DNA of 49,816 bases from Girardia tigrina (taxonomy: Eukaryota). Both the position numbers and the translations under genes were made by a program. Below the pieces are notes generated by a model. That model was not told the DNA's origin. It saw only the letters and a program-made list of their open reading frames with translations, and made no database searches. Shown here piece by piece: positions 39,263-46,509 of the stretch. Position 1 is the stretch's first letter. Every line of letters starts with the position of its first letter. The stretch covers positions 1 through 49,816 of the forward strand of contig MQRK01224516.1 in NCBI GenBank assembly GCA_001938485.1, written 5' to 3'.

Positions 39263-40560
39263 ATTTCTTTCTTGACAAAACGGCATTTAGATCTTGTTTT
39301 ACCAGCACCAACAGGAATATTTGCTCCCGAATGAGACGAGTTAAGGATAAGAGAACAACAAAAATTATCATCACAACAACATTCAAATAACATACACAAA
39401 AAATGTACGTTAATATGCGACACTATGGTGTCTGAAGTAGTGGGTACACTACTTGGGATCTCTCGTTAAGGATTCCTCTTGCAGTGAACTGAGGGTTGGA
39501 ACTTTTAACAGAAAATTTTCCATGATGAATATAGACGAAAACTTTTTCAATTATTTGATAGTATTCAATCATATCGAAATTGAACCGATGAATCAAGATG
39601 ATTTTGATCAACTACATATACATTGATAGTTTGCATCATGTCAAAAAATAAACATAAATAACAAAAGCGTTATAACGTATTGTAATAATTGGATGATGTT
39701 ATTGTATTTATCTAAATTATTTATTTACAATTTAAATTTTGAAATATAAGTTTTTTAAAATGCAATTCATTTTAATTAAATGAAATTACATGATTTATCT
39801 ATAATTAATTTTTTATTCTATATTTCTTTATAAAATGTAAATTTAAAAGTAACTAAGTAAATAAACAAATCAAACTAATTTATGATTATATTTGTGGTGA
39901 CTAGAAAACTTTTTCTATAAATAATAAGTAAAAAAGCTAACATTTGTAATTTAATAAAATCTAAACTTGATGATTGTACTTGAAAATAAGTCTACGTTCG
40001 GAGGAATACTAATTGAGTATTAAAAAATAGAACTCATTATGAGAAAATTTTTAGAATATTTCGTTCAAAGGAAGATTACTTGAAATCAGAAAGAAAATTA
40101 TTTTCGAGAAAAATGAAAATCCATAATAAATATAAATTTATCAAGTTAATTAGGAAGGAGTAGTAAATTACGAATCAGATTCATTCTATACTAACAGTTG
40201 ATGTTGATCTAATTAGGGTTGGGGAGAGTACCAGGTCCATAGGAGTACAACCTCCCACAGAATGTATCTAACAAAATTTATGAATGATACATTTGTATAA
40301 AAATTAGATTTTAGATAAAGAAGTATGAATATTGTAAAAAGTATATCATCCTTTACTATCTAGTTTATTTATTTATATTTAATTTTATACACCGTGTATC
40401 AAAAAAAACAATACAGTGAAAAAATAATAATAACTTGTATTTATAATGGTGAAACACAAAGCTATGTGAAATGTCTATAATTTTCCATACATTTTTCGAG
40501 ATGGTGAATGAAACAGCGATGAACCGCTGAAAGAGTGTCCCAAAAATCAGGTGTTGGTGA

Positions 40561-40654
40561 TGCAAGAGCGGGCGCAGCGGTTTTGTGGCTACGGCGCGCC
40601 AGCGGCTGGAGCGACCATCAGGTCGGGGGGACAAAAATATTTGAATCTCACATT
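40561..40654 (-). repeat. GC-rich conserved motif, copy 2
   Basis: Homologous to 26642-26739; directly abuts the importin fragment. Confidence 0.85.
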
Positions 40655-41688
40655 TTAATTTGAGCGAATCCAGCGTACTAAACAACATGCCCTTCCTCTG
40701 TAGTGACCAGGACTCTCTGTCGACAGAATCAGTTGGCTATCATTGTTAGGGAACACAAACAACTGCCAACAATGCGCCACGTTGAGTAAATGTCTCAATT
40801 TTTTCATGTATTTAAAAATTGATTTTAACTCATCGATTTTCGCCCTCAAAGAACTTTGGATTCTATTCTCAATCCACGACAATCGGCAGGCGCCTTCCAT
40901 CCAAATTTTAATGAATTCAAATCGCTGTGATTCGCTCGTCATTTTACATATTCGATTTGTTTCGATTGTATCAACACCCCCTCCTGTTTAATCGTATTAT
41001 TGTGTATTTCTCCTTGAATTTTAAGACGCATTTTTGTCGTGTCGATCGGATCGAACTCGAGACCGATCGACGAGCGATTGTTATCGGCCGGATTCGATTG
41101 AGCATAGAATTTCGATTGAAAAATCGTCGGGAACCGTTTCCATTTGACACCTTTTTGTCGGCCCCTGACGGACGCCAGTCCCAGGAACTGATCGAGTCCT
41201 TGGGACAAGCGGCGGGTCGATTGCACCGGATACACACGGTAAATGATCATCCAAGCGTCATTGGCGAACAAAGCGTTGAATAAATTCGGCCATTTCTGAT
41301 TCCAATCGGAGCGGCTAATTTAGGCGATGATTTCAGTGATCAAGTTGACGAATTTCGAGCACGAGAGCGCGTTCATTTTGATAGCCAAGCGGAGAAGTTG
41401 TCGGCAAATGATTTCCTTATCGCCGTCCAGAAAGTTGACGCTTCGTTGCCAGTGTTTTTTGATCAGATTTTTCGGTTGAATTGCGGTGAAAAATCGATGA
41501 GATTCGTCAATGTTGGAGTTGAGAATGATGTCGAGTAGAATGAGAGAAATATTCGGTTTGGAGAATAAAAGTTCTTGGAGTTTCGAATTGCCAGTTTGAC
41601 TATCAGATAAATTATTGGAAGTCATTAGAGTGAAAAATTTCAAGATTTCATTGATATCTTTTACATTGATAATTTTTACATCCGACAT
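40655..41688 (-). pseudogene. IPO11: Intronless importin-beta family N-terminal fragment, most like importin-11
   Basis: IBN_N-like RFFTAIQPKNLIKKHWQR..DKEII, IIA*ISRSDWNQKWPNLF (compare IAKVARLDCPRQWPEL) and STRRLSQGLDQFLGLAS (compare ASKRLAADRKLFYDLAS), with stops and frameshifts. Confidence 0.7.
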
Positions 41689-41884
41689 AAATTCAAATAA
41701 ATTCAAAAAATTGTAAATTCAAATACCAATTACGACTTAAAAAAAACACGTTCACACATACAACATACTCACAAGATCGAACCATTCAAAACAAAATCCT
41801 GAACAGACACACACAAAGAGTTCGATCGTTTCAACAAATCGTGTTTGTTATCACCATCGTTTTTTGTTAATTATTTGATTTGAT

Positions 41885-43329: not shown

Positions 43330-44130
43330 TTTTTATCGCGAAACAGGTGTTGTACGCATTTCATTAAATAAACGATAAATGCAAGCTTGTAACTGTACTG
43401 TGTTAGCAAATGGTGAATGTGCATAAATTTTATTTTTTACTGCACCCCATAAGAAAAAAATTACACATTGACAAGTCTGGGGACAAAGATTGTCAATTGT
43501 GAGATGAGCACCCACCAATCGATTTTCGAATTGTTGATGCAGAAAAGCATGTGTTTACAAAGCAGTGTGTGCTGTTGCGCCATCCTGTTGAAACCACACT
43601 TGTTTGAACCAATTAGCACCAAACTTCTCATGCATTTCCATCGTAAGCCGCAATACCAACTCTGTATTTTTCTGCATTGACATTAACACCATCTGGAAGA
43701 AAGTAAGGCCAAAAGAGATGCAGCAAACACAGTCACTTTCCTGGATTGATAATTATGCTCGACATAATGAGATGATGGCCGCTCGATACCCCATACAACT
43801 GCATTTCGCACTTGCATGTGGCCATCGAGATACACACTGGCTTCATCAGATGAGAAAAAGAGTCGGATCAACATGGCTGTCGTAAAAGAGTTCCAAAAGA
43901 AGGACACAAGCTCTTTTACGACGGATACGGTGATTTTCAGTTACGTGAGGCACCACTTGCTGACCGCTTTCTTCCAGAATGTGAACCACCATGGGATTTC
44001 TGATACTGTTCTGGTTATGAAGGCTGTATCCGATATTGATTTTCTTCACTTGATCACCGAATTGTTTAGTGTCTCACATACAATGTGGGAAATTCTTTGT
44101 TGAGAGCCTCAGCTGCTTTACAATAACTTC
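43330..44130 (-). pseudogene. DD41D/rosa-like transposase remnant
   Basis: FSSDEASVYLDGH..NAVVWG, KVTVFAA, VWFQQDGATAH and FFLWGAVKNKIY, frameshifted. Confidence 0.8.
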
Positions 44131-44389
44131 CATACAAAAAATTTTTTTTCATGAATTAATTTGAGATTAGTGCAAGTTAACAATCTATTCTTACTTCGTT
44201 TTATGACATGAAGAAACTTAGAATCCATTTTATTTTTTGTTTGGTTTCGAAATTTTTGGTTTGTTTAAGTCTCGTTTAAAAAATTTGCATTTTCGATTTC
44301 TTTGTTTTATTTTAATATTTTAAATTGTGAATCATAAATTTTATAGAAAAAACAGTAATTAAATAATTTTTTTAATTTTGTTCGTTCCA

Positions 44390-44480
44390 CGTTTATGTTA
44401 TTTATTTTCCTAACCATTTCTTCGTTTATCACATTTAATGCAGCTCCCGTATCTAATAGGCATTCAATCTCGTATTGTTT
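44390..44480 (-). pseudogene. Retroviral-type aspartic protease fragment
   Basis: EIECLLDTGAALNVINEEMVRKI directly inside the right TIR. Confidence 0.6.
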
Positions 44481-46509
44481 TATAAATTTAAGTTATTATT
44501 CTTTTTCACCGTAATGTTTTTTTGATACACGGTGTATATTTCTATTTATATTAAATATACAGATTCGGATAATCTAAAATTCATAATATAAACTTTTATT
44601 TCGTGATATTTGTTTTGATTTTTGTATTATTCTATTATTTTTAAGAAAATCAGTCATTTATTTTTTTCTCAATTTCGAAAATAGAAAATTAACATTTATC
44701 AATCTGAATATTTATGGATCTATCTTAATTTGAAATTTATTAAATCATGAAATTTAACGAAAAATTAATTCAAATTTTAAGTAGAGTCAAATGATACACG
44801 ATCAATATCCATTGTTTGTTACTAATGTAAATCGAAAAAATTAAATTATCACGATTATGAATTTAGTTATATTATTAAACCGAGAGAAAGAAATTATTTC
44901 CAGATTATTATTTCAAATTAGTTCAAAACCAAAGTTAAAATTTATTTACGTGCAAAAACAGAAACATTAATTCAATATTAAAATTTTTTTTATTTTCGGT
45001 AAAATGGAAAAATTAAATAGAGCTAAAATTAATTAAAGACTGATGTTTAATACAGACGAATGGTAACTACAAAAAAAATGAAGAAAAATATTGAACGGAT
45101 AAAAGAGTAATTGATCGGCAGACATTTACAATATTCGAATTCTATTCAAGTACAGCATTTTTATTCGAGAGTACAAAATGTCAATGGATACCACAATATA
45201 ACAATAAAGAGGATTTTAAAAAGAAATTTAAATAGGTAAGTTACTTTAAGTCGATGCTTTAATCTTTTTAGAAATAATTTTATTGATTTCATATTGTGGA
45301 AGGACGATTGTATAGAGTGGATTCTTTCTATTGATAATATAGATTGATATTTAGTTCAAAGTAAAATGGATCACTGATAGTTTAGTGCAGTAAGTGGACA
45401 TTGATAGATTGATGTAAAAATTTTCTTTTTAAGGATTTATATTGATACCGAATTATTTTCTTTTATTTGTTAAAGTCGGAAAGTGTTCACCTTGATTTGC
45501 TCTTGAAAGGAAGATTTAGTTTATCGATAGTAGTAGCAATAAAATTTAATTAATTTGTTAAGGTAATATTTTATTTCTTCGTAACTAAATTATTAAAAAA
45601 AATTAAAAGAAAATTTGGAGTACACACCAGCAATATGACAGCCAATGTTTTATCACCGAAACGCCATATAACAGCAGTATTTATTTCGGTTTGGTGATGT
45701 TAGGCTACAGAACAGATCAGGCATTTTCGAAGAGAAGTCGAGCTCAACGTCCATTACGAATTAACACCTCCCCACATTATGTCAGAAAAATTTAAGTCAT
45801 TTTTCAGTTAAATTTTTTAACAAATTTCTTATTAAATTGTGACTTAAGAGCTCTGTAATAAAATGGAAAGATTTTTGTGAAATTATTTCGTAAAATTGAT
45901 TCGAATTGATATTATGAAAATCATTTAATACAAAAAACGGAAGCTGTTAAATGGTTTTATAATCCTGAGATGCTTGAAGAGAAAATTTAAATGTTGATGG
46001 AAGGCTGAAATGTGTTAAACGAAATATGATGAAACTGTGTTCCGCTGTTTAGAACAAGCGAAAGTGGGTAACTTTTTTAAACAATTAAAATGTACTTGTT
46101 GACAGAAATTGATTTTTCGGAAATTCTTCATATTGGACGATGTAATGTTTGACAACTTTATGAGAGTTTTTAACAATAGAATAAACTTAATAAATGAAAA
46201 TAATATAATGAAATTGTAATAATTATAAAAAACTACAAGCGGAGGAGATTTTTGTATGAATTTCGGATTGATTCTTTGGATGAATAAGTTGAAAATAATA
46301 CTGTGATTGTTAGATTAGGTTGTGAATTGAGATAAATGGAACGAGTAAATCCGAATGAGTTCTTGTGTGAAATGTTTCCAAACTGCATTAATTAACAGAG
46401 ATAAATGGAAAGAGAGTAAAGCGACACAAATAAATCCGGATGAGTTCTTGTATGAAGTGTATTTATACAGTACTAATTTTTTAAATGTATAAAGCCAACA
46501 TTTAAGTCT

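Follow-up and report, generated by a model that had tools for sequence, protein, structure and literature searches.

Positions 40390 to 44534 of Girardia tigrina contig MQRK01224516.1 (assembly GCA_001938485.1; 49,816 nucleotides (nt), the whole of which is called the window here) hold an element with terminal inverted repeats (TIRs), which an initial annotation read as a Tc1/mariner-like shell packed with five captured gene fragments. We find that the host-gene fragments sit in a separate element, a single long terminal repeat (LTR) of the BEL/Pao retrotransposon family, which landed inside a DD41D Tc1/mariner copy. Very probably they were copied into the 3' unique region (U3) of that LTR from spliced messenger RNAs (mRNAs), by reverse-transcriptase template jumps at short shared sequences. 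The five pieces are thus not one cargo of the shell: those of a LIM gene, RBM15/spenito and importin-11 lie in the nested insert of 2,791 bp, which has a target-site duplication (TSD) of its own, GGTGT.

The outer element is an ordinary DD41D Tc1/mariner copy of about 1.3 kb, decayed and interrupted in the window. Its ∼55-bp repeats with TA flanks had been described correctly. The left TIR (40390 to about 40446, or 40388..40446 with the TA at 40388-40389, plus strand) ends as it does in sister copies, and the right TIR (44480-44534, minus strand, or 44480..44536 with the TA at 44535-44536) is complementary to it at 22 of the 22 outer bases, TA flanks included, and at approximately 88% over 61 nt. 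An origin of the two TIRs from independent elements had been named as a point that would count against the capture reading; both are the ends of one element. The genome searched is an AT-rich draft of 1.43 Gb, fragmented into 255,254 contigs (fetched genome stretches are labelled L with a number, contigs G000:C and public sequencing runs X). A search with the whole TIR element (40 matches scored of 1,884 candidates) gave 25 contigs that place window positions 40380-40556 beside 43341-43960. The 3' end of the DD41D body (40447..40554, minus strand), severed in the window by the LTR, abuts 43341-43960 in all 11 fetched sister copies, and positions 40555-43345 are absent from every one of them when the junction is read. 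In the five sister copies of which both ends could be read, the length is 1,311-1,332 bp. The transposase (43346..44138, minus strand) is broken by frameshifts and lacks about 150 bp at 43960. Its DD41D-like character, noted before, is borne out by the spacing of 41 residues between the second and third catalytic aspartates (D2-D3), unbroken in the sister copy L013, but it is the shell's own gene and not a captured fragment. The third aspartate is altered in L014, L015 and L026, and the window copy is frameshifted there. In TA flanks, TIRs of ∼55 bp, D2-D3 spacing of 41 and length of 1.3 kb the element matches DD41D Tc1/mariner elements, which we take to be the rosa group, and beyond the decay and interruption of the window copy no difference was seen.

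Within the transposase gene of this copy lies the solo-type LTR (40555..43345, minus strand), with TG..CA ends and the sequence GGTGT on both sides (left copy 40550..40554, right copy 43346..43350). The joint of the empty site, from 40547 to 43344, is present in all four public runs compared and skips 2,796 positions, the 2,791 of the LTR plus the five of the duplication; no public run used here, including those that supplied the contigs called RNA-type below, is recorded as RNA. Copies of the insert occur elsewhere without TIRs, each with its own 5-bp duplication (L011, L002, L084, L092, L098 and L148), and TG..CA ends with such a duplication were found in the window and at 15 further loci, of which two are nearly identical copies. 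With sister copies empty and the insert present elsewhere without TIRs and with other duplications, the Tc1/mariner-like shell is not the carrier of the host pieces; since these are in the nested LTR, mRNA capture by such a shell is unneeded. Duplications belonging to the fragments themselves had also been counted in advance as evidence against the shell, and the host fragments do have one, shared by all of them. Two other assignments of the insert were dropped: a 9-bp Mutator-type duplication, because other copies show 5 bp, and a DNA transposon of Ginger or Transib type, because the insert has no terminal inverted repeats and its relatives carry a primer-binding site and Pao pol.

That the insert is a BEL/Pao LTR follows from its two ends and from what adjoins them in relatives. 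A genome search with its window-left end gave 1,173 first-look candidates, of which 40 were scored; the 30 loci inspected stop sharply at one identical base, beyond which, duplicates aside, the flanks are unrelated. This conserved 3' part (40555..40973, minus strand) is the putative repeat and 5' unique region (R/U5). At five exact places genome-wide (control, 0) its end on the minus strand leads, after four bases, into a primer-binding-site motif, presumably the complement of the initiator Met tRNA, and 14 loci with a primer-binding site after the LTR end were listed in all. The opposite, U3 end (43277..43345, minus strand; 69 nt) is common to L143-L147 and includes the start motif of the family, a 16-nt sequence with 479 genome matches against 11 for the control. 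Among 40 start-motif sites fetched, picked for contig room from the first 100 listed, nine close with an exact 5-bp duplication and one has a polypurine tract upstream, the rest being short, imperfect or without a U5 that could be found. A looser primer-site pattern was discarded, as only two of the 30 inspected among its 402 matches came from the family. The CCCTCT flank of L012, L019 and L021 was not used as a polypurine tract, these loci being near-identical copies of one site.

Beyond the primer-binding site the relatives encode ubiquitin and then a DUF1759 gag (weak and below the cut-off in L139 and L140). The most complete order was read in L298: 5' LTR, primer-binding site, two ubiquitins, DUF1759, protease, reverse transcriptase, Peptidase_A17, integrase, polypurine tract and 3' LTR. 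A polypurine tract precedes the 3' LTR in L255, L298 and L289, and the last two are two-LTR elements; relatives are about 8 kb long, with LTRs of 0.65-3.4 kb. TG..CA LTRs, 5-bp duplication, primer-binding site, polypurine tract, DUF1759 gag and Peptidase_A17 pol are all as in BEL/Pao elements, whereas LTRs of this length made mostly of variable, host-derived sequence, and one or two ubiquitins before Gag, are departures from them. The ubiquitin domains stand directly before Gag in L139, L140, L158, L282, L287 and L298, an arrangement of which exact-word matching in open-access text found no published account for BEL/Pao. In L158 (positions 2379-3278) a Tc1-type transposon lies inside the 5' LTR of a family member, the nesting of the window reversed.

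The identification of LIM, RBM15/spenito RRM and importin-11 N-terminal pieces, all on the minus strand, was upheld: in the window's minus-strand frames Pfam recognised IBN_N, two RRM_1 domains and, below cut-off, LIM (E 0.003), five of the 14 frames tested having these or other relevant matches, and the parents were found. The LIM-gene piece (42538..43283, minus strand; 746 nt) consists of five fused exons, is 94-98% identical to its parent (G000:C221682) and lacks all four of the parental GT-AG introns it spans (40, 1,834, 53 and 45 bp); RNA-type contigs from two studies (runs X3 and X9) are colinear with it. It is followed by a 29-bp linker (42509..42537, minus strand), for which no donor was found in the LIM or the RBM15 parent contig. 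Next comes the 5' untranslated region (UTR) and start of exon 1 of RBM15/spenito (42259..42508, minus strand), 94% identical to a parent with RRM and SPOC domains (G000:C234004) and with its first base no more than 5 nt from where an RNA-type contig starts. A second RBM15 piece, RRM2-RRM3 from a later exon (41820..42267, minus strand; 94%), is joined to the first at a 6-nt microhomology and not at a splice site, and the X3 contig places about 600 nt of skipped transcript between the two. Splicing across the 5.9-kb genomic gap was considered for this junction and dropped, and it is not counted as intron loss, because both ends lie inside exons, at the shared 6-nt run. A stretch of about 165 nt common to other LTRs of the family (41669..41834, minus strand; 41753-41834 with L143-L147, 41669-41744 with L022) separates the RBM15 sequence from the importin-11-like N-terminal piece (41035..41668, minus strand; about 630 nt), which is 91-93% identical to G000:C208948 and G000:C227673 and derives from one long first exon. 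The importin parent matches Cse1 and KAP120 in the PDB, the latter presumably the importin-11 orthologue. The importin piece has 95 tblastn matches genome-wide, and a HMMER search with its frame gave 88 unnamed matches, although a separate homologous-protein search with it gave none. Overlooked until now was a 66-bp remnant of an SLC25 mitochondrial carrier (40985..41050, minus strand), in frame with the importin piece and longer in L088 and L098 (Mito_carr); the same 66 bp occur in an X3 RNA-type contig that continues past them on both sides.

All pieces had been called intronless, and this is informative for LIM only, because neither the importin piece nor either of the RBM15 pieces extends beyond one parental exon; checked against the parents, the LIM piece crosses four exon-exon junctions and the other two genes' pieces none. 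The cargo is 3-9% diverged from its parents and has frameshifts of its own, and within the window LTR neither poly(A) nor a separate duplication was found at the cargo ends. RNA-type contigs track the parent genes and leave the window sequence at the cargo ends, but such contigs cannot show that the chimera is not transcribed. At four of the six cargo junctions the joined sequences share microhomology (7, 6, 14 of 15, and 11 nt); when junctions were drawn at random from the same donors, exact matches that long arose in 367, 590, 61 and 2 of 200,000 draws, respectively. Together with the LIM intron loss, these microhomologies support the part of the initial annotation that proposed serial mRNA capture by template switching.

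The same junctions recur at dispersed loci. That between LIM and RBM15 is shared by the window, L011 and L002 with three different duplications, and hence the chimera was re-copied. Importin joined to U5 occurs in L022, L100 and L148, and in L011 RBM15 is joined straight to U5. In L143-L147 the U3 start and part of the 41669-41834 stretch have 325-400 other bases between them, so the cargo replaces U3 sequence and does not interrupt it. A link of importin to gypsy pol, adjacent in L022, L029 and L030, was rejected: they are chance neighbours without a shared LTR, and L030, like L009, is the parent locus. L029 (positions 4270-5335, G000:C241069) has a longer importin-11-like copy with frameshifts, which may be an allele, a paralogue or a pseudogene; its identity to the parent is 92%, and it resembles the window piece slightly more than the parent does. 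In L184 (G000:C218131:1423-2132), two tandem 147-bp pieces that span the linker and the RBM15 start lie near CHD-like helicase exons; a small TA-flanked element possibly re-captured this cargo.

The survey of the family began with 58 LTR or LTR-start loci, less 14 that were near-duplicates or already described. Open frames of at least 62 codons were kept, with unbounded loci represented only by frames that start within their first 800 nt. After this 39 loci remained; two sense frames outside this rule were added by hand, one for its carrier-like look. With Pfam at E 0.001, a threshold under which several host-domain matches fall below the curated cut-off, 15 of 105 sense frames matched (14 host domains and one nested DDE transposase) as against none of 86 antisense frames. 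Host domains were thus present at 14 of the 39 loci, always in sense, and belong to 12 families: Mito_carr, IBN_N, BTB, Methyltransf_16, PIG-M, Peptidase_M1_N, Claudin_2, APP_E2, PWWP, ZPR1, FGGY_N and Uso1. Evidence of U5 was seen at eight of these 14 loci. The ZPR1 piece in L266, the one survey locus checked against its parent, begins within the 5' UTR and is without the single 2.4-kb GT-AG intron it spans; for the TopBP1-like part of L266 no intron-bearing parent was found among 40 scored matches. Across the family, LTRs share only their first ∼15-70 and last ∼100-400 nt, and the U3 starts of 59 sequences fall into 42 clusters, 33 of them singletons.

Cargo also occurs in 5' LTRs beside a primer-binding site, namely BTB in L201 and VAC14 in L294. 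L294 (positions 16-3369, G000:C21291) has an unbroken frame of 1,118 codons that comprises the VAC14 N-terminus, U5, primer-binding site, ubiquitin, DUF1759 Gag and a CCCH finger; the contig starts just upstream of the frame, and the 5' end of the LTR is out of view. Protein-level selection on the frame through U5 and the primer site was considered and is not supported: there is no third-position bias (permutation p 0.21), and the ratio of nonsynonymous to synonymous polymorphism (pN/pS) is 0.96 as against 0.45 for ubiquitin. Stops in this frame number 7, versus 27 and 16 in the other frames (31 sequences). L261, L158, L160 and L290 have an LTR cargo in common, whose frame, at most 331 codons long, reaches U5 and has no Pfam match.

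We propose that host mRNAs would be packaged together with element RNA in the particle, and that during minus-strand synthesis the enzyme may quit the element RNA in U3, copy parts of host mRNAs and return, in several rounds; LTR variants would also recombine with one another. Since both LTRs receive a copy of U3, the cargo would become part of the LTR. Integrase would then insert the element with a 5-bp duplication, and later recombination between the LTRs would remove the inside and leave one cargo-bearing LTR. One such insertion presumably hit the DD41D copy of the window. The step to a single LTR is one that we infer, because no two-LTR element with the same LIM-RBM15-importin cargo was found, and there was none among 19 matches of the U3 end.

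That absence weighs against the proposal, as do several other observations. The window LTR is linked to L298 through L158 by U5 similarity of 79-83%, and not by identity. Five exact primer-site matches stand against ∼480-1,170 matches of the LTR ends, an extreme ratio, albeit in a fragmented assembly. None of the public contigs listed spans the window's own nesting junction. The RBM15 and importin pieces span no splice junction, and two junctions, at the 29-bp linker and at 41669-41752, have no identified donor. Finally, six of the 14 cargo loci (L242, L251, L258, L262, L266 and L276) are tied to the family by the start motif only, the fetched stretch containing no U5.

The main open rival is that the single LTRs are one-LTR complementary DNAs (cDNAs) made of U3 end, cargo and R/U5, which arose by aberrant strand transfer onto host mRNA and, because both ends recognised by integrase are present, could integrate directly. 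The great excess of single over primer-site-linked LTRs, the diversity of U3 starts, the restriction of shared sequence to the two LTR ends and the start of several cargos at or near mRNA 5' ends (RBM15, ZPR1) all suit this view. Two-LTR elements nevertheless exist (L298 and L289), primer-site-linked 5' LTRs hold cargo too, and full-length copies are hidden by the fragmentation of the assembly; we regard it as unlikely, though worth keeping in play. It is a good deal less probable that non-LTR processed copies, or DNA conversion from processed pseudogenes, entered the LTRs after integration. Intronless pieces would be expected here as well and DNA donors are plentiful, as the 95 importin matches indicate, but the cargo ends have no poly(A) or separate duplication, the bias to sense is 14 to 0, identical chimeric junctions occur at dispersed loci with different target duplications, and U3 sequence in L143-L147 is replaced rather than interrupted.

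An assembly chimera of repeats and transcripts might be suspected in a draft of so many contigs, the more so with the nesting junction spanned by no listed public contig. Yet the exact 5-bp duplication agrees with the empty allele, the cargo has diverged from its parents and acquired frameshifts, the same cargo junctions are present on several contigs, and both outer flanks of the TIR element are matched without differences in runs X1 and X2 (possibly the source material), which leaves this explanation hardly any probability. As slight is the chance that the Tc1/mariner shell itself took up all the fragments serially from cDNA during gap repair, a reading already refuted for LIM, RBM15 and importin. 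In its favour, the TIRs and TA flanks belong to one element, Pack-TIRs occur in animals according to the portion of PMC8277862 available to us, and the TIR copy does contain foreign sequence: a 333-bp filler (44139..44471) that takes the place of ∼150-180 bp of the normal element and is found in no other scored copy. However, the host pieces lie within a unit that has TG..CA ends and a 5-bp duplication of its own and is found elsewhere without TIRs, the site is empty in 11 of 11 sister copies and four of four runs, and no host gene or splice evidence was found in the filler. The DTG motif of the protease fragment is real, but it belongs to no host gene: it is part of a 104-bp scrap of a gypsy-type protease gene (44369..44472, minus strand; 96-97% identical to a family of high copy number) within the filler, of which another segment (44147-44336, 190 bp) resembles G000:C247335 at 89%. 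No match covered the whole filler among the 40 scored of 524 candidates of the gypsy protease family, and it therefore appears unique to the window copy. The filler is the only Pack-TIR-like part of this TIR element, and its uptake was a separate event, likely by templated break repair.

Template switching by LTR reverse transcriptases, on which the explanation we prefer relies, is already a published mechanism. Tan et al. (2016, PMC5131818) describe, in the text accessible to us, LTR-mediated retroposition in animals that yields partial, spliced, multi-gene chimeras, with Pao BATUMI and BEL18 cases included, a median microsimilarity of 6 bp at switch points, no poly(A) and further rounds of copying. 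Intron loss (LIM 4/4, ZPR1 1/1), microsimilarity at four of six junctions and a re-copied chimera are the corresponding features here. In all the Drosophila cases given there the retrocopy replaced part of the internal open reading frames between two LTRs, whereas here the cargo is inside the LTR, in U3, upstream of U5 and the primer-binding site, and occurs as single LTRs that vary over hundreds of loci. The word 'solo' is absent from the main text of that paper, though its supplements could hold LTR-internal cases. The Pack-TIR study (Tan et al. 2021, PMC8277862), as far as its consulted text goes, deals with DNA-templated capture and discarded intronless copies of multi-exon genes; foreign sequence between the TIRs of an animal DNA transposon is a likeness that suits the 333-bp filler, but the host cargo of the window was not captured directly between TIRs and is instead a nested retro-element. 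Burro of planarians (PMC6431247) is described, in the part of that source consulted, as a giant gypsy-like element of over 30 kb whose polyprotein includes host-derived domains, among them a ubiquitin/SUMO-like one. The present family likewise combines a retrotransposon with host-derived domains, a ubiquitin included, but it is BEL/Pao, is about 8 kb long and carries its cargo in the LTR, and is no giant gypsy element. Exact-word matching in open-access text, with partial coverage, found no report of host-mRNA mosaics inside BEL/Pao LTRs or spread as solo LTRs. Cargo within the LTR, dispersed as hundreds of single LTRs, is thus a variant for which this matching gave no published report.

The apparent mRNA capture by a DNA transposon dissolves, and what remains is an extensive natural archive of template switching by a retrotransposon. 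Cargo within an LTR survives collapse to a single LTR and is doubled in each round; it also adjoins the promoter and polyadenylation signals of the element. Given some 480 exact matches to the start motif, and host domains in about one-third of the scanned loci, the family could have supplied a major share of the processed gene fragments and exon fusions of this animal. It could likewise serve as a list of co-packaged mRNAs and, as the 95 importin matches illustrate, mislead gene annotation and copy-number estimates; possibly it also gives rise to small RNAs directed at the parent genes. A bolder idea, which we think improbable, is that this BEL/Pao clade has given up a fixed U3: its LTR would be an ever-renewed mosaic of parts of host mRNAs between an integrase end of ∼15 nt and the conserved U5, which would work in the life cycle through direct integration of one-LTR cDNA or through start signals from captured mRNA 5' ends. 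The genome would then hold hundreds of sense exon fusions from one family, and in the L294 frame from VAC14 through U5 and primer site to ubiquitin and Gag, ubiquitin would let the host cleave off any leader.

Elsewhere in the window, four long frames lie at 21866-26062, among them one on the minus strand, which appears helicase-like, and two on the plus strand, with a phospholipase-like motif and a capsid-like appearance; we take them to resemble an endogenous small DNA virus. Frames at 488-1769 presumably correspond to the C-terminal region of a non-LTR retrotransposon of the site-specific kind. A second Tc1/mariner transposase remnant, at about 14400-14820, adjoins an assembly gap.

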